A DNA stretch of 64,000 nt from an uncultured archaeon (GTDB lineage: Archaea; Asgardarchaeota; Thorarchaeia; Thorarchaeales; Thorarchaeaceae), in assembly GCA_964558645.1 (NCBI GenBank), contig CAZLEV010000004.1, forward strand, positions 107,442 through 171,441, written 5' to 3'. Shown in pieces: positions 31,504 through 61,625 of the stretch (positions are counted from its first letter, which is position 1; every line of letters begins with the position of its first letter). Made by a program: the position numbers and the translations under genes. Below the pieces are notes generated by a model that saw nothing but the letters and a program-made list of their open reading frames with translations, did no database searches and had not been told where the DNA came from.

Positions 31504-33362
31504 TGATCAAGGGGATTGGTGGAGAGATACTGTGGGTCGACCTAGACAGGTCTAAGATAGAGAAGCGTCCAGTTGATGAAGAAACCGTTCACAAGTACCT
31601 ACTGGGAGCAGGACTGCTCTCAAAGGTGCTCTATGACAAGATTCCTGTGGGAATTGACCCGCTCTCCTCCAAGAATGTTCTCGGTATAGCCACGGGCCTT
31701 CTGACCGCGTCCATGTTCCCTCAGGCCTCTCGCCACGTCATTGCAGGTCTCTCGCCGCTGACGGATATCTGGGGAGAGAGTCATGCTGCAGGATTCTGGG
31801 GACCAGAGCTGAAGTTTGCAGGGTATGATGCAATATTCTTCACAGGCGCATCATCAGACCCTGTCTATCTCAATATTCATGACTCAGAGGTCGAACTGCG
31901 TGATGCTGAGCCTGTCTGGGGACACGACGTGTTCGAGACTGATGATATCCTGCGAGAGCGTCATGGAAAGCAGTGTCGCGTGCTATCTATCGGCCAAGCC
32001 GGTGAGAACCTCGTCAGGTTCGCCGCAATAATGAATGACAGAGACAGAGCCTCTGCGAGATCAGGTCTGGGAGCGGTCATGGGCTCCAAGAGAATGAAAG
32101 CTGTTTGTGTCCGAGGTACCGGGAAGCTAGAAGTTGCAGAACCGGGGAAGTACTTGGAGACTATGGACAGATTCTATGAACGCATGCTCGCGAATCCCTT
32201 CACTCCTGAACGTGCGAAGTATGGTACGACCAACCTCATAGAGATGATGCATAATATCGGCAGACTGCCGAGCTATAACATGAGGGAGGGGGTCTTCGAT
32301 GACTATGAAGACATCAGTGGTGAGACCATCACAAGAGAATACCTCGTGAAGCCGCGGGCTGATTGGTCGTGCTTGCAACGCTGCGGTAGGTTCACCAGGG
32401 TCAGAGACCTGCCGTACAAGTACATAGGTGGATCTCCCGAGTTCGAGTCTCAGGCCGCCCTAGGATCAAGGTGTGGTAACAGAAATGTCGAATCTGTCCT
32501 GTTCAGCCACCATCTAGCAAACCAGTATGGGATGGACACCATCTCACTGGGAGGAACGATATCGTGGGCGATGGAGGCATGGGATGAGGGACTCCTAACT
32601 GAGGAAGACACTGGCGGGTTGAATCTTGACTGGGGAAACCATGAGACCGTCGTGAGACTGACCAAGATGATTGCATTCAGAGAGGGCTTCGGGGACATAC
32701 TGGCCGAGGGGAGCTATCGAGCTGCAGAGAAGATCGGGAAGGGAAGCGACGAGTTCGTCATGGCAGTCAAAAAGCAGGAGATTGCTGGACAGGAGCCACG
32801 CGGACAGAAGTCTATGGGTCTTGCCGCTGCGACTGCAGCAAGGGGAGCAGACCACCTCTATGCCTTTCCCGTGTTAGACGAGGCAGGGTTTGATGATGAG
32901 ATAAGGGAGCGCCTTGGAGAGGAGTTTCTCCCAGAGATGGCTGACCGGCTTGATCCCACCTACAAGGGAATCATGGTGAAAGAATGCGAGGACTATATGG
33001 TCATGATAGAGAGCGTCGGCGTCTGTAAGTACGGGACGCAGATCCCTCCCGAGTTATACTATGATGACATATCTGAGGCCCTAAGAGTGCACAACGGAAT
33101 CCTTCTCTCGTCGAAGGAACTACAGGAAATTGGTGAACGCATAGTCAATCTCAACAGGATGTTCAATGTCGACAGAGGTGTGACTCGCCAGGACGACAAT
33201 CTGCCAAGGAGGCTCACTGAGGTACCCTCCCCGCGAGGACCTGCAAAGGGGGAGGTAGTGGAGCTCGAACTAATGCTGGACGAGTACTACAGACAGAGAG
33301 GGTGGGACCCTAAGACAGGGATTCCAACTCAGGAGACTCTGCACCGGCTTGGCCTGAAGTAG
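31503..33362 (+). CDS. aor: Second tungsten AOR-family oxidoreductase
   Basis: SPLTD, ESHAAG, GQAGEN, ARSGLGAVMGSK, SPEFES, GMDTIS. Confidence 0.92.
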   Translation: MIKGIGGEILWVDLDRSKIEKRPVDEETVHKYLLGAGLLSKVLYDKIPVGIDPLSSKNVLGIATGLLTASMFPQASRHVIAGLSPLTDIWGESHAAGFWGPELKFAGYDAIFFTGASSDPVYLNIHDSEVELRDAEPVWGHDVFETDDILRERHGKQCRVLSIGQAGENLVRFAAIMNDRDRASARSGLGAVMGSKRMKAVCVRGTGKLEVAEPGKYLETMDRFYERMLANPFTPERAKYGTTNLIEMMHNIGRLPSYNMREGVFDDYEDISGETITREYLVKPRADWSCLQRCGRFTRVRDLPYKYIGGSPEFESQAALGSRCGNRNVESVLFSHHLANQYGMDTISLGGTISWAMEAWDEGLLTEEDTGGLNLDWGNHETVVRLTKMIAFREGFGDILAEGSYRAAEKIGKGSDEFVMAVKKQEIAGQEPRGQKSMGLAAATAARGADHLYAFPVLDEAGFDDEIRERLGEEFLPEMADRLDPTYKGIMVKECEDYMVMIESVGVCKYGTQIPPELYYDDISEALRVHNGILLSSKELQEIGERIVNLNRMFNVDRGVTRQDDNLPRRLTEVPSPRGPAKGEVVELELMLDEYYRQRGWDPKTGIPTQETLHRLGLK

Positions 33363-33582
33363 ACCGATCATGCTGTTCATTCGTCGCACTCAATCATCAA
33401 GTGTACGATCAGTGCATCCTTCTCTGACAAGACCAGGACTCCGGATTCAGAATCAAGACTGTTTCTTTCCGAATAGAGAACCACAGTTCAGGTCCCCGCA
33501 ATACCAAGAAGAAGCCGGTCGTTCTCTCCGATTCCGAGCCCACACACTCTGCGACTGTGAATCTTCGACGAGGATGCTCCTT

Positions 33583-33819
33583 CTAGTCACACGTTGCGCA
33601 GACATTTGTCACCGTATCACGAACACCATCTAGATTCCTCAGCTCATCAACCACAAAAGAGCTGAGCTTCTCAGGGGTCTTGAACATTCCCTTGATGAGT
33701 AGGTCATACGCACCATAGATCAAGTATGCCTCATCGACCTCCTCAAACTCTCTGACTTTGGTCAGAATCTCTCGTGCTTTTGCCGACTCAATCTTAGCCA
33801 TTATGAAAGCCATTATCAA
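33583..33819 (-). CDS. Stand-alone Lrp/AsnC ligand-binding (RAM) domain protein
   Basis: VDEAYLIYGAYDLLIK...LDGVRDTVT. Confidence 0.85.
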   Translation of the reverse strand: MIMAFIMAKIESAKAREILTKVREFEEVDEAYLIYGAYDLLIKGMFKTPEKLSSFVVDELRNLDGVRDTVTNVCATCD

Positions 33820-34054
33820 TGTGATGCCACCTTGCCCATGAGATTACTGGAGTTAACTATTCGTCGCTCACAATAAAAGTTGTTGCTTCGCTACTACAAG
33901 ACGAGGGCGACTCCAATCTGACCCTCTCCTGACGGCGAAGACCTGCAGATGTGCATCAATGAGAGAAGTAAGTTAACAAAGTAGAAGTCACAATCAGGAA
34001 TGTTTTAAAACCTGTAAGGGAAAGCTCGGAAAACATAGCGGAGGCCAACCTTCT

Positions 34055-34525
34055 TTGACATCGGCGGCAGATACCTCAAGCTCATCAGCAAAAGCAAAGA
34101 GAAAACGAAAGAAGGGCTTTGAGCCTCGAATTCTGTCATTCTGCTGCAACTGGTGTTCTTACGCCGGCGCAGACTTGGCGGGAACTAGCAGGATGCAGAT
34201 GCCGCCCAATGTCAGAATCATCAGGGTTAATTGTACTGGCCGCATAGACCCATCATTCATTCTCGACGCTCTCGGGCAGGGAGCAGATGGCATCCTGATA
34301 TCGGGCTGTCACCCGGGGGACTGCCATTACAGCAGTGGAAACCTGAAGATGGCGGGTCGCTTCGCCCTGTTGACTAGCCTCGTTGAGCAGGCAGGATTTG
34401 ACCCAAGACGCATCCATCTACAGTGGGCAAGCGCTGCAGAGGGTGATGTATTCAGAGATGGCGTCGCTGAGATGGTGGAACGAATCAAAGAACTGGGCCC
34501 GAACCCTGTAAGGGAGGCTGACTAG
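34055..34525 (+). CDS. mvhD: F420-non-reducing hydrogenase [2Fe-2S] subunit D (Cys form)
   Basis: FCCNWCSYAGAD, VNCTGRID, GCHPGDCHY. Confidence 0.95.
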   Translation: MTSAADTSSSSAKAKRKRKKGFEPRILSFCCNWCSYAGADLAGTSRMQMPPNVRIIRVNCTGRIDPSFILDALGQGADGILISGCHPGDCHYSSGNLKMAGRFALLTSLVEQAGFDPRRIHLQWASAAEGDVFRDGVAEMVERIKELGPNPVREAD

Positions 34526-34526
34526 A

Positions 34527-35441
34527 GTGACAAAGCGAGTAGCATTCGCACAGCTCACCTCGTGTTGGGGCTGTGACCAGTCATTAGTGGATCTCCATTT
34601 TCGACTTCTTGACGTACTCCCTGAGCTGGAGATAGTATTCTGGCCAGCAGTCGTTGACTTCAAGCTGAAGGATCTTGAGGGTCTGCCCAACGAGTCGATT
34701 CACCTTGGATTCGTTGAGGGAAGCTGTAGAACCAATGAAGATTTGCATCTACTGAAGACTATGCGCAAGAAGAGCAAGTTCCTGATCGCATGGGGCTCAT
34801 GCTCATGTTTTGGCGGTGTCCAGGGCCTTGGAAACCAGTGGCCTATTGACGAACTGGCAGAGAGGAAGTTCCTGCAGGCGGACTCCGTTACAGATCCAAG
34901 GATTCCAGAGAGCAACATGCCGGGTTTTCTCGGGATAGTCAAGCCAAATCCCGCTCATGTCAAGTTCAACATGGTTCTTCCAGGTTGCCCACCCACTTCG
35001 GACAACACATACAATGTTGTAGAGGCGCTACTCACAGGTAAGCCATTCGACCTCCCGGAGAAGACGGTGTGTGACGAGTGTCCAAAGGAACGAGAAGACA
35101 AGCACATCGAGAGGTTCTACAGGACCCACGAGGGGAAGATAGACCCTGATAGATGCCTTCTTGATCAAGGATATCTCTGTCTGGGTTTTGCAACCATCGG
35201 GCTCTGTGGGGCACAGTGTCCAACAGTGAACACACCATGCAAGGGATGCTTTGGACCCCCTCCGTCCGTTAAAGACCATGGTGCGAAAATCATCTCTGCT
35301 CTGGGTGCTGTAGCAGAAATGAGTCCAGAAGAACTGAAGGAGGCCTTTCCTGATCCAATCGGTTCCTTCTATTTCACTGATTATGCGGCATCCTACCTAT
35401 CAAGCATTACCGCAAAGAAGAGGGAGGAAAAAGGCAAATGA
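34527..35441 (+). CDS. mvhG: F420-non-reducing hydrogenase small subunit G
   Basis: SCWGC, GSCSCFGG, PGCPP, VCDECP, CLLDQGYLCLG, PCKGCFGP. Confidence 0.93.
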   Translation: MTKRVAFAQLTSCWGCDQSLVDLHFRLLDVLPELEIVFWPAVVDFKLKDLEGLPNESIHLGFVEGSCRTNEDLHLLKTMRKKSKFLIAWGSCSCFGGVQGLGNQWPIDELAERKFLQADSVTDPRIPESNMPGFLGIVKPNPAHVKFNMVLPGCPPTSDNTYNVVEALLTGKPFDLPEKTVCDECPKEREDKHIERFYRTHEGKIDPDRCLLDQGYLCLGFATIGLCGAQCPTVNTPCKGCFGPPPSVKDHGAKIISALGAVAEMSPEELKEAFPDPIGSFYFTDYAASYLSSITAKKREEKGK

Positions 35442-36751
35442 CTGACGAGAAGGTAATACGGATCGAACCGGTGACTCGATTGGAAGGGCACGGTGAGCTG
35501 ACGCTCAAGCTCTCGAAGACGGGCAAGGTGAAAGATGTCCAGTTCAACGTCTCGAGTACACGGTTCTTTGAGAAGTTCCTTGAGGGGCGTTTCGCAGAAG
35601 AGGTGCCAAGAATTGCCGAGCGTATCTGTGGCATCTGCCCTGAGCCGCACCATCTGGCTTCAGTCAAAGCAGTAGAAGCGGCATGGAGAGTGACTCCGCC
35701 ACCAGCAGCAGTTAAGGTAAGACGACTGTTGATCAATGCCAAGCAGTTATCATCACACGCACTCCACTTCTTTGCACTGGCTGCCCCTGACTTCTTAGCT
35801 GGGCCCTTTGCAGAGCCATCCAAGAGAAATGTTGTCGAAGTTATCAAACAACTCCCCGATGTGGGGAAGCTCGCTCTAAGCGTCATGAAGTACGGTCAAG
35901 AGCTTGCCACTGCTATCGGTGGAAAGGCCATCCACCCTGTCACAGCAACTCCCGGCGGGATGTTGAATCCGTTCTCCGAAGAGAAGAGAGACAACTTCCT
36001 TGGCCTCATGGACGGACTCAAGGAGAACATAACAGACACAGTGGAACTGGCGAAGAAAGTCGTTGAGGACTACTGGGACCCGATAACAAAGCTTGGCGTT
36101 GTGCCGACTTACTATCTGGGAACCCATGATAAGGGAAGGCTTGAGATATACGATGGGAACATCCGCGTGATGGACCCAGAGGGCAAGATAGTGGAAGACT
36201 TCAAACCGAAGGACTATCTGGACTACTACGGGGAGTACGTGCCCGACCATTCCTATGCCACACACATCTACTACAAGCCTGCAGGTTATCCAGATGGAAT
36301 CTGGAGAGCGAACTCCCTGGCACGAGTCAACATCGCAGACAAGATGAAAACACCTCTGGCCCAAGAGGCGCTCCAAGAGATGCGCGACAAGCTGGGCAGA
36401 CCAATCCACGCCGTATTTGCCTATCATTGGGCAAGAGTTATAGAGATGGTTCAGGCTATGGAAGAGATGGATGAGCTACTCCAAGACCCTGATATTGTCA
36501 GCACCGATGTCAAACTGACAGATGTTGAGCCACGCAAGGGTAATGGAGTTGGCTGTGTCGAGGCGCCACGTGGGACTCTGGTCCATCATTACTGGACAGA
36601 TGACCGGGGGATTATCACCAAGGTGAACCTTGTTGTTGCAACAAACAACAACATAGCGGGCATTGAGAAGAGCCTAATGCAGGCAGCCAAACAGATATTC
36701 GAGAAGAAAGAGCACGAGAAACTAGACCTACCGGAGCCGATGATGAAGTAG
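35438..36751 (+). CDS. vhuA: [NiFe(Se)] hydrogenase large subunit A, lacking the C-terminal metal-binding motif (split type)
   Basis: EPVTRLEGHG, RICGICPEPH (L1), EAPRGTLVHHY; ends LPEPMMK with no DPCxxCxxH (L2). Confidence 0.92.
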   Translation: MTDEKVIRIEPVTRLEGHGELTLKLSKTGKVKDVQFNVSSTRFFEKFLEGRFAEEVPRIAERICGICPEPHHLASVKAVEAAWRVTPPPAAVKVRRLLINAKQLSSHALHFFALAAPDFLAGPFAEPSKRNVVEVIKQLPDVGKLALSVMKYGQELATAIGGKAIHPVTATPGGMLNPFSEEKRDNFLGLMDGLKENITDTVELAKKVVEDYWDPITKLGVVPTYYLGTHDKGRLEIYDGNIRVMDPEGKIVEDFKPKDYLDYYGEYVPDHSYATHIYYKPAGYPDGIWRANSLARVNIADKMKTPLAQEALQEMRDKLGRPIHAVFAYHWARVIEMVQAMEEMDELLQDPDIVSTDVKLTDVEPRKGNGVGCVEAPRGTLVHHYWTDDRGIITKVNLVVATNNNIAGIEKSLMQAAKQIFEKKEHEKLDLPEPMMK

Positions 36752-36759
36752 TGATAAAG

Positions 36760-36912
36760 ATGACAGATGAAATAGATGAAGGGCTGCTGAACCTCCTGGA
36801 AATGGTGGTTCGCTGCTACGACTGCTGACTATCCTGCGGCGCTCATTTCGTCGTTGTGGACGATGAGGGTCGCGAGATAGTTCGGAAGGAGCTAGTGACT
36901 GGCGGCGGATGA
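36760..36912 (+). CDS. vhuU: Selenoprotein VhuU (C-terminal L2 peptide of split hydrogenase), Sec at codon 23
   Basis: MTDEIDEGLLNLLEMVVRCYDC-[TGA 36826-36828]-LSCGAHFVVVDDEGREIVRKELVTGGG*. The TGA sits at the first Cys position of DPCxxCxxH; directly follows vhuA; SECIS downstream. Confidence 0.93.
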
Positions 36913-36950
36913 AGGCCCGGCGTAAAGATGTGAGCCGGGTTGGACACGCC
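36901..36950 (+). ncRNA. Eukaryote-like SECIS element (cis-acting)
   Basis: GGCG/CGCC helix I, AUGAA...GGAC core, GGCCCGGC/GCCGGGUU helix II, apical AAA. Confidence 0.82.
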
Positions 36951-37121
36951 CCGCAAGGGCGCGCCAGTTGTACTCCCCCATTGTGTTGTTCTGATAAGAG
37001 AGAACTCTAATGGTTGTACTCATATTTGTGATCTTGTCTTATGCGTGATGGTTGTCAGAGAGACCGTCAGTCCTGTATCCGAGATGCCTGAGAACGCCTT
37101 GAATCTGTGACTTCTTTGAAA

Positions 37122-38831
37122 CTACATTGCATTTTCATCTATTGGAATGGAAGTCTTTCGGTATCTTAGGAAGGCTGCCAATGAAACTGCAGTAACAGCA
37201 GCCAGAATTGCAGTCAGAATCACAACCTCCAAGAGTGGAATCGGAGGGTTGTGATGGGGCGAAGATACTATCACGATTATCGTATGACTGTTCCAATATC
37301 CAAAGGTGTCGTAGACGACAATCGTATAGTTGTAGGTGCCGGCCGCCAGCTCATCAACATTGACTCTTATCGAGGAACCATCCCAGACGCCGGACTCAAT
37401 GAACAGATTATCATGGTAGATCTCGTAGTGTTGAGGATTTGGATCCCATGCGTCCCAAGTGACACTTGTACCGTAGTATTCCACATTCCAGGTGTCGTAT
37501 AGACTGTCAATGAAAGGCGGGGTGGTGTCCATTGGAGCCCACACACATGGATAGCGGTCAGCACTTCCTGCAGACCCCGGTATATCATAGGTGTCATTCC
37601 CCCCATGATCATCCCAGCAGTTCCCCAATGAAGTTCCATCGTCCCAAGAGTTGAGCGTTCCTGAGTCGCGGGCATTAGCGATACGACTATGCCCGAAGCG
37701 ATTCAGAAAGACTGTGTTGTTAGAACTCCCCGAGCTTATCTCAATGGCATAATTCCAGATGCTAGTGGCAGTGTTGTTAGTCAGGACACACGATGTGGAA
37801 TGATATAGGTAGAAGCCGTTCTCTTCGTGACCATTGGCGGTGTTGTTGTTCAGCGTACAACCAATTACTTCGGAAAGGAGGAACCCAGACCACCGGCTGT
37901 TGGTAGCCGTGTTGTTGATCAGGGTGCACCAATCCGAGGACACCAGAATGAACCTATTGGCTGTATTGCTGGTCAGGGAAGACCAATCCGAAAACGATAG
38001 AGTGAACCAACCGCCAGTATTGTCAGTCAGGATACACGAGTGTGAGGACACCAAACGAAATACACCGGCAACATTATCGATCAGAATGCACGATTCCGAA
38101 GAAGACAGCCTGAAGCCTTCCTGCAGATTATCGGTGGCAGTGTTGTTGATGAGGGTCGCCAAGTCCGAGAATCGCAAATTGAATCCAGACCATAAGTTTC
38201 TGGCAGCAATGTTATTGACTAGCGTGCAGTCAGCTGAATCATCAAGCCAGAATCCGAAGCTGTTGCTGTTCGCGGCATTATTAGTCAAGGTAGATGAACC
38301 CGAGAGGTGTAAGTAGAACCCAGACCATGAATTGCTCATAGCAATGTTGTCTGTTAGAATACATGAACCGGAAGACGATAAATAGAACCCATACCGGGTG
38401 TTGTTGATGGCAGTGTTGTTTACCAGGGTGCAATTCACTGAATCCTGCAGAAGAAGGCCGTGATGTTTTCGAGAGATGAATGTGTCGCGGACTGCTCCAT
38501 GAGTAAGGTTGTTGAGCAAGATACCTTCGTTCTTTGATTCTGCAGGCGAACTGATAATGCAGTTCCTGACCTCAAAATAGACTGTAGTTCCTGATATGTT
38601 AAGACACACCTCCGTAGAGGTGATATTTACATTCTCTATCACGTAAGGATTATCGACTGTGCCGTTCCCGGGCCATCCTTGATGCTCGAAATCGAAATCA
38701 GAAGATATGACAATGGGGTTTCTCTCCTCGTAGGAAGTTGTAGGGGGTGTGAACAGTATCTCCTCCACTCCAATCGCTGAACTGCTGAAATGCAGTTCTA
38801 TCGCACCCACAGAACAAGGAGCAAAGACCAA
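37122..38831 (-). CDS. Membrane-anchored parallel beta-helix (NosD/CASH repeat) surface protein
   Basis: GWPGNGTVDNPYVIEN, repeated CTLxNNTAxxN..GFxL units, GNCWDD, Ig-like domain, C-terminal TM. The frame is open upstream to a CTG near 38876. Confidence 0.88.
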   Translation of the reverse strand: MVFAPCSVGAIELHFSSSAIGVEEILFTPPTTSYEERNPIVISSDFDFEHQGWPGNGTVDNPYVIENVNITSTEVCLNISGTTVYFEVRNCIISSPAESKNEGILLNNLTHGAVRDTFISRKHHGLLLQDSVNCTLVNNTAINNTRYGFYLSSSGSCILTDNIAMSNSWSGFYLHLSGSSTLTNNAANSNSFGFWLDDSADCTLVNNIAARNLWSGFNLRFSDLATLINNTATDNLQEGFRLSSSESCILIDNVAGVFRLVSSHSCILTDNTGGWFTLSFSDWSSLTSNTANRFILVSSDWCTLINNTATNSRWSGFLLSEVIGCTLNNNTANGHEENGFYLYHSTSCVLTNNTATSIWNYAIEISSGSSNNTVFLNRFGHSRIANARDSGTLNSWDDGTSLGNCWDDHGGNDTYDIPGSAGSADRYPCVWAPMDTTPPFIDSLYDTWNVEYYGTSVTWDAWDPNPQHYEIYHDNLFIESGVWDGSSIRVNVDELAAGTYNYTIVVYDTFGYWNSHTIIVIVSSPHHNPPIPLLEVVILTAILAAVTAVSLAAFLRYRKTSIPIDENAM

Positions 38832-61534: not shown

Positions 61535-61625
61535 TGGCGGCCCCCTAGCAGAATCGAACTGCTATCGCTTGCACGATCATGGGTTTGAAGCCCACGGAAC
61601 CCGACCACGGGCTCTGTAGGGGGCC
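61535..61625 (-). tRNA. selC: tRNA-Sec (anticodon UCA)
   Basis: GGCCCCCUA CA GAGCCCG-UGGU-CGGGUUC CGUGGG-CUUCAAA-CCCAUG AUCGU-GCAA-GCGAU A GCAG-UUCGAUU-CUGC UAGGGGGCC G CCA: 9-bp acceptor, 7-bp D stem, 6-bp anticodon stem, long variable arm, 4-bp T stem, G73, encoded CCA. Confidence 0.97.

Follow-up and report, generated by a model that had tools for sequence, protein, structure and literature searches.

The window analysed here is a stretch of 64,000 nucleotides from a thorarchaeial metagenome-assembled genome (92.8% complete, estimated contamination 6.3%). The following features were located in it.

34055..34525, + strand: mvhD/vhuD (FlpD family), all-Cys form; Pfam PF02662, 174 bits; best PDB match the Cys-type MvhD 9SW2_D, E 6e-50
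34527..35441, + strand: hydrogenase small subunit gene mvhG/vhuG; Pfam PF01058 (Oxidored_q6), 71.8 bits; tightly packed in the operon
35438..36751, + strand: vhuA, [NiFe] large subunit of 437 aa; PF00374 (NiFeSe_Hases); Ni ligands C64 and C67
36760..36912, + strand: vhuU; ATG at 36760, 50 sense codons and a UGA stop; supplies U23-x-x-C26-x-x-H29
36814..36825, + strand: C19-Y20-D21-C22, with two extra cysteines, C19 (36814-36816) and C22 (36823-36825)
36826..36828, + strand: UGA codon 23, very probably decoded as selenocysteine (U23); occupies the terminal Ni-ligand position
36847..36909, + strand: 21-residue C-terminal extension past H29, a candidate for removal by a maturation endopeptidase
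36909..36944, + strand: Loki-type (eukaryote-like) SECIS; AUGA at 36909-36912, GA at 36943-36944
36910..36912, + strand: terminal TGA stop of vhuU
36947..36961, + strand: second hairpin, short, immediately 3' of the SECIS; GCCC pairs with GGGC around a CGCAA loop
60398..61105, + strand: PSTK-like kinase gene; TIGR03574, 140 bits, below the curated, methanogen-based cut-off of 290.5
61535..61625, - strand: tRNA-Sec, anticodon TCA; found by ARAGORN; Rfam RF01852, 59.8 bits (gathering score 47)

The large subunit VhuA carries the N-terminal motif R-I-C-G-I-C-x-x-x-H and stops short of any C-terminal D-P-C-x-x-C-x-x-H, which is found nowhere in its 437 residues; the absence of L2 recorded in the first-pass annotation is thereby confirmed. 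The same annotation had described MvhD as an all-Cys form, in agreement with the lack of an in-frame TGA in its gene and with its best match to a Cys-type MvhD. The true start of MvhD is uncertain: the frame opens with TTG and runs through a Ser/Lys/Arg-rich extension of ~20 residues (34055-34120), and homology to MvhD begins at G-F-E-P-R-I. The 420-nt gap on its 5' side (33634-34054) contains no long ORF. At the other end of the operon, a contig from the same genus (L059) matches the window over 32491-36976 with 92% identity, and the identity stops abruptly just past the second hairpin; the NosD-like beta-helix gene that follows in the window (37122-38831, minus strand) is not shared.

The vhuU frame begins 8 nt past the end of vhuA and is left unannotated by standard gene callers. 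Around the TGA, its product reads R18-C19-Y20-D21-C22-U23-L24-S25-C26-G27-A28-H29, followed by the 21-residue tail; the coordinates of this 50-codon, TGA-containing ORF, the position of the TGA at codon 23 and the motif were all reproduced exactly as first described. Residues 7-421 of VhuA align to the 418-aa split VhuA in the M. maripaludis Hdr-Vhu-Fwd complex (PDB 9SFI, chain 9SFI_g, E 6e-132). VhuA also aligns to 5ODC, a fused MvhA of 473 aa, over residues 4-417 of the latter, and the VhuU peptide aligns to residues 427-452 of 5ODC_F as well as to the 27-aa VhuU chain 9SFI_M. These alignments indicate that the split point is the methanococcal one and that VhuA and VhuU together make up a complete group-3c large subunit, bearing out the original proposal that a VhuU-type selenopeptide completes a split [NiFeSe] hydrogenase. 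Group 3c (Mvh/Vhu) is marked here by the shared split point, by a peptide that supplies the C-terminal ligands, and by an operon that also encodes MvhD (FlpD) and MvhG. By homology with the aligned enzymes, the terminal Ni ligand would be U23, with C26 acting as bridging ligand. Against the NCBIfam model for VhuU, a methanococcal equivalog (NF041786), the ORF scored 46.3 bits (E 1.6e-11), below the curated cut-off of 70, and it is therefore a divergent relative of methanococcal VhuU, homologous to it and outside the curated equivalog.

Both this score and the omission of the ORF by standard gene callers would also suit a reading in which the TGA is a true stop, or a sequencing or assembly error, so that the ORF is a remnant and the hydrogenase is inactive or completed in some other way. 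The distribution of the codon argues against this. The in-frame UGA opens the [CU]-x-x-C-x-x-H motif, and homologues have a UGA or Cys codon aligned to it. When relatives were searched with the peptide, a match was obtained in 34 of 41, with about 30 small ORFs carrying a single in-frame TGA at the same place. Peptides from genomes of the same family are identical to ones encoded on contigs deposited as Candidatus Thorarchaeota. A DNA pattern that left positions 19 and 22 unconstrained was then run over 400 genomes of the phylum, and gave 149 matches, of which 143 were VhuU-like and 6, judged by eye, resembled chance hits; with the pattern reversed as a control, 2 matches were obtained. TGA occupies the same codon in ~143 loci across ~117 other genomes, and in both paralogues of the present one. 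The second vhuA-vhuU locus lies on another contig of the genome (L002, G000:C7:167131-167280), and its DNA is 76% identical to that of the window over 852 aligned bases, whereas the VhuU peptide is identical: all 12 differences between the two ORFs are synonymous, 4 of them past the TGA. The 143 VhuU-like matches against 2 in the control, together with the identical peptide of the paralogue, place vhuU far beyond chance.

In the comparison of the two paralogues, which covered 36760-36975, the 22 codons ahead of the TGA contain eight synonymous base changes in seven codons, and the ~59 nt from D21-C22-U23 onward contain no synonymous change. This unchanged stretch is suggestive of gene conversion or of a constraint acting on the RNA immediately 3' of the Sec codon.

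The sequence that follows the TGA was compared with 27 distinct 50-codon orthologues. Differences at codon positions 1, 2 and 3 numbered 102, 55 and 214, respectively, and codon changes comprised 164 synonymous and 130 non-synonymous ones. Thus, the segment past the TGA evolves as coding sequence under purifying selection, contrary both to a remnant ORF and to the possibility raised in the first-pass annotation that homologues might fail to conserve it. In addition, small subunits of 49-58 aa with Cys in place of Sec (P0005-P0011; R-C-Y-D-C-C-L-S-C) were found in Thor- and Sigynarchaeota records, and these and the TGA homologues form a classical Sec/Cys pairing. The Cys-for-Sec subunits represent a 'VhcU-like' Asgard form, and in one of them (P0009/L155, G014:C63:34321-34458) Phe replaces the conserved cleavage-site His. 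Asgard-type vhuU with a Sec codon was also encountered on two contigs labelled 'Bacteroidales bacterium' (L037, a MAG contig, SLSH01000336.1) and 'Thermoproteota archaeon' (L053, JAPDJY010000006.1); both are probably mis-binned or mislabelled.

The 3' UTR opens with G-G-A-U-G-A, so that the UGA stop of vhuU belongs to the AUGA of the SECIS. The SECIS stem consists of 8 bp (36914-36921 with 36934-36941) and closes a 12-nt loop, GUAAAGAUGUGA (36922-36933), which begins with G-U-A-A-A; G-G-A stands after the stem. Having AUGA, a stem, an A-rich apical loop and GA, all in the 3' UTR, the element is of the eukaryote-like kind; it is the same element as the lokiSECIS described by Mariotti et al. 2016, who reported that the AUGA of VhuU.1 doubles as the stop codon (PMC4989117); a loop start of G-[U/G]-A-A-A was reported for frhA/vhuU of Thorarchaeia by Huang et al. 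2024 (PMC11227280). Between the window and its paralogue, the SECIS differs by only two changes, both of which keep the pairing (C-G to U.G and G.U to A-U). Alignment A2 comprises 59 sequences, drawn from loci of Thor-, Loki-, Hel- and other Asgard archaea. Pairing was seen in 84% of its cells, against 22-60% when the partner columns were slid; 95 double-sided changes were counted, and none of 500 shuffles reached the observed score. A covariance model built from the same alignment gave 62.7 bits for the window element and 57.6 bits for the paralogue. Folded as a single sequence, the vhuU 3' UTR was not more stable than its shuffles (z = -0.67), and the support for the SECIS is covariation, not energy.

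The second hairpin (columns 45-58 of alignment A2) was 95% paired, with covariation at the outer pair and otherwise nearly invariant columns. Its consensus, a stem of [AG]-C-C-C with G-G-G-[UC] and a loop of Y-G-C-N-N, recurs in vhuU 3' UTRs of Thor-, Loki- and other Asgard archaea; no description of it was found in two SECIS papers (PMC4989117 and PMC11227280). A model combining the SECIS and this hairpin, run over the whole genome, matched just the two vhuU elements, so no selenoproteome emerged from the search.

The genome encodes complete Sec machinery, consisting of tRNA-Sec, the PSTK-like kinase, SepSecS (472 bits), EFSec (291 bits) and SelD (405 bits), the last three scoring above their curated cut-offs. 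The PSTK-like gene (G000:C4:167839-168546, converted here to window coordinates) adjoins the tRNA-Sec gene 24 kb downstream of vhuU, and SepSecS and EFSec are adjacent on another contig (G000:C13:3583-6251). The SelD match (G000:C12:110681-111607) lies within a 749-aa open frame with no internal stops; a fused or Cys-type SelD is suggested, not the Sec type common in Asgard archaea. Taken together, the TGA homologues, the Cys homologues, the coding signature downstream, the covariation of the SECIS and the Sec machinery uphold the earlier assignment of this UGA as a Sec codon, and UGA-23 is very probably read as selenocysteine. A true stop, or an error, recurring at the same codon in the face of this evidence is scarcely credible.

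VhuU was described in Asgard archaea in 2016 (PMC4989117) and surveyed there in 2024 (PMC11227280), and the literature agrees with the earlier statement that it is known from Asgard archaea and Methanococcales (PMC4989117, PMC11227280, PMC13518236). The gene in the window is an Asgard VhuU selenoprotein gene, a known kind of gene; because its family, SECIS and distribution are already published, this instance adds little. Like the window gene, VhuU genes of Loki-, Thor-, Sif- and Jordarchaeia encode ~50 aa that include one Sec, in U-x-x-C, lie downstream of a truncated large subunit gene (PMC4989117, PMC11227280), carry a lokiSECIS (AUGA...GA, stem of ~9 bp, A-rich loop, UGA stop inside AUGA) and, in the published FASTA, share the R-C-Y-D-C-X motif. 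There is no substantive difference from them, and the window adds one genome with two paralogous loci.

The closest solved relative of the enzyme is M. maripaludis VhuADGU (PDB 9SFI; PMC13518236). VhuU of Methanococcales (M. voltae, M. maripaludis) shares with the window the split point (VhuA of 418 aa against 437 aa), Sec at the terminal Ni-ligand position, a cleavable tail and the VhuADGU architecture, but has the motif R-A-Y-D-P-U-Y-S-C-A-A-H. The SECIS of Methanococcales is of the euryarchaeal GAA_A type, whereas that of the window is of the Loki type, and VhuD has Sec in Methanococcales and Cys in the window. Fused MvhA (M. thermolithotrophicus, 5ODC) and the large subunits of periplasmic [NiFeSe] hydrogenases (1CC1, 2WPN) share their fold and all four Ni ligands with the window enzyme, including a C-terminal [CU]-x-x-C-x-x-H after a helix that ends in R-x-[YF]-D; unlike it, they are single polypeptides with D-P-[CU] and neither extra cysteine.

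The first-pass annotation had called the C-Y-D-C-U motif unusual. This is right in relation to Methanococcales and to fused hydrogenases, which have D-P-[CU], but not within the Asgard archaea. In the 143 VhuU-like matches from the 400 genomes, position 22 was Cys in 137, encoded by TGC as well as TGT, and otherwise Phe in three (G311, G313, G314), Pro in two (G163, G164) and Asn in one (G158). The supplementary FASTA of Huang et al. 2024 (PMC11227280) contains 182 D-C-X entries (116 Y-D-C-X and 66 F-D-C-X), alongside 17 Y-D-P-X, 2 Y-D-F-X and 1 Y-D-N-X; the D-C-X entries include Thorarchaeia sequences almost identical to the window VhuU, and hence the motif is already in the public record. 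Text commenting on it was not found in the searchable literature, where absence is no proof that none exists. Our scan of deposited contigs required D-C-U and is therefore biased at position 22, so the unbiased tallies are those of the 400-genome pattern and the published FASTA; a metagenome scan for D-P-U yielded at least one further Asgard-like peptide, R-C-Y-D-P-U, with a lokiSECIS (L245). Position 19 is Cys in VhuU of the Thor-, Loki-, Sif-, Borr- and Atabey-types; Jordarchaeia have Ala or Ser there, a Helarchaeota contig has Asn, and Ile occurs in others.

Fused large subunits of the same genomes read R-A-Y-D-P-C, methanococcal VhuU reads R-A-Y-D-P-U, and that of Methanopyrus R-S-Y-D-I-U. 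D-C-[CU] was seen in split small subunits only and never in fused large subunits; a search of longer proteins, which is weak evidence, found no fused large subunit with D-C-[CU]. Two sequences that seemed to contain an internal TGA (G006:C2 and G014:C5) proved to be D-P-C proteins with a TGA stop. To our knowledge, the residue ahead of the terminal ligand is Pro in every [NiFe] and [NiFeSe] hydrogenase characterised so far. From these comparisons, D-C-U with R-C-Y is the norm in Asgard archaea and a published state.

What the extra cysteines do was judged from substitution patterns, not from a structure. The C-terminal G-C-U-G of thioredoxin reductase contains the same adjacent Cys-Sec dipeptide, and a selenenylsulfide between vicinal Cys and Sec is established chemistry in that enzyme. 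Cys22 and Sec23, optionally with Cys19 as a C-x-x-C partner, might likewise form a reversible selenenylsulfide or disulfide that acts as a redox switch or as O2 protection, either at the Ni-Se site or in the free selenopeptide before assembly. This proposal draws on the thioredoxin reductase precedent, on the prevalence of Cys22 in both tallies, with its two codons in the genomic one, and on a Cys-Sec relay that has been suggested for HdrA in a complex of this kind (PMC13518236); the literature found on selenenylsulfide and NiFeSe together consisted of general reviews only. The likeness to thioredoxin reductase is, however, resemblance and not membership. Fold and context are unrelated, and the Sec of thioredoxin reductase sits on a flexible tail as a free redox centre, whereas the Sec of the window enzyme is predicted to be a metal ligand; with Sec bound to Ni in the holoenzyme, a Se-S bond would need de-metallation and could form only before assembly or after damage. 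In contrast to what would be expected of a vicinal Cys-Sec redox centre of the thioredoxin reductase type, the pair is neither strictly required nor free for Se-S formation.

The substitutions also speak against thiol chemistry. At position 22, Methanococcales and some Lokiarchaeia have Pro, Methanopyrus has Ile, and VhuU of other Asgard archaea carries Phe or Asn, which indicates that a working split enzyme does not need a thiol there. C22 is conserved no more than L24, S25 and A28, and the Cys-for-Sec homologues retain both C19 and C22. In several lineages, Jord- and Hel- among them, C19 gives way to Ala, Ser, Asn or Ile, and the exchange is conservative with respect to other hydrogenases, in which the site is Ala or Ser. 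The combinations observed at positions 19 and 22 (C/P, A/C, S/C, N/C, I/C, I/F and S/N) demonstrate that the two vary independently, and an obligatory C-x-x-C pair can be dismissed. Nor does VhuA offer a conserved partner: in an alignment of 53 split VhuA, with 3 fused large subunits as the outgroup, the Ni ligands C64 and C67 were the only invariant cysteines of the split subunits, the other Cys columns were 22-70% occupied, and none of these co-varied with C19 or C22 among the 53 as a disulfide or metal partner would. We therefore consider a selenenylsulfide or disulfide function at this site quite unlikely.

The extra cysteines could instead assist assembly of the metallocentre, for example if the Hyp machinery used the free peptide to handle Ni or Fe transiently before it docks to VhuA. 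The restriction of D-C-[CU] to split small subunits, with D-P-C in the fused forms of the same genomes, and its retention in both Sec and Cys versions are consistent with such a role; however, Methanococcales, Methanopyrus and some Lokiarchaeia build a split VhuU without the motif, and we regard this role, too, as unlikely. The spectrum at position 22 (C, P, I, F and N) fits a buried second-sphere site that has been freed of the Pro constraint in split enzymes, and does not fit a site that requires thiol chemistry. On the substitution spectrum, the absent VhuA partner and the Cys homologues together, little weight is left for a redox switch, about as little for a maturation role, and the rest falls to a structural signature of the lineage; the confinement of D-C-[CU] to split small subunits is compatible with some functional role. 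C19 and C22 are a lineage signature of Asgard split hydrogenases, and most likely they serve in packing or in a buried second sphere, not as a redox switch.

The tail of VhuU resembles the C-terminal extension of FrhA (3ZFS_A residues 373-403, E 2.4e-6). The deposited M. maripaludis VhuU chain 9SFI_M, 27 aa in length, ends one residue past the His, although its gene encodes ~20 residues more, and a gene for a HycI-family endopeptidase was found in the genome studied here. On these three grounds the 21-residue tail is probably cleaved after H29, and the 'probably' of the earlier annotation is retained.

In the mechanism we propose, vhuU encodes a C-terminal piece that has become detached from the large subunit of a cytoplasmic [NiFeSe] hydrogenase of group 3c (Mvh/Vhu-type), whose operon has the order mvhD-mvhG-vhuA-vhuU. 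UGA-23 would be decoded as selenocysteine by means of tRNA-Sec, EFSec and the SECIS, a eukaryote-like kink-turn hairpin that stands in the 3' UTR, 81 nt downstream of UGA-23, and the AUGA core of which contains vhuU's own UGA stop. The active site would be formed by Sec23 as the terminal Ni ligand and Cys26 as the Ni-Fe bridging ligand, together with Cys64 and Cys67 of VhuA, and His29 would mark the clipping site after which a HycI-type endopeptidase removes the tail. That the window operon encodes a Thorarchaeota-type Asgard split [NiFeSe] hydrogenase of this kind, with a Sec-encoding vhuU, we hold to be highly probable.

One further possibility concerns C22, which is present in ~96% of Asgard VhuU and might be a functional second-sphere thiol, whether as a proton relay, as a sacrificial or protective thiol, or as a transient Se-S/S-S lock of the free peptide before the metal is inserted. 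We consider this doubtful; if true, it would give the Asgard split hydrogenases a mechanism unlike that of any [NiFe(Se)] enzyme characterised to date. The vhuU locus itself is a clear case of a catalytic subunit concealed by standard gene calling. Where the 50-codon Sec ORF is left uncalled, the main H2-handling enzyme of the genome looks broken, and this affects metabolic reconstructions of Asgard archaea.
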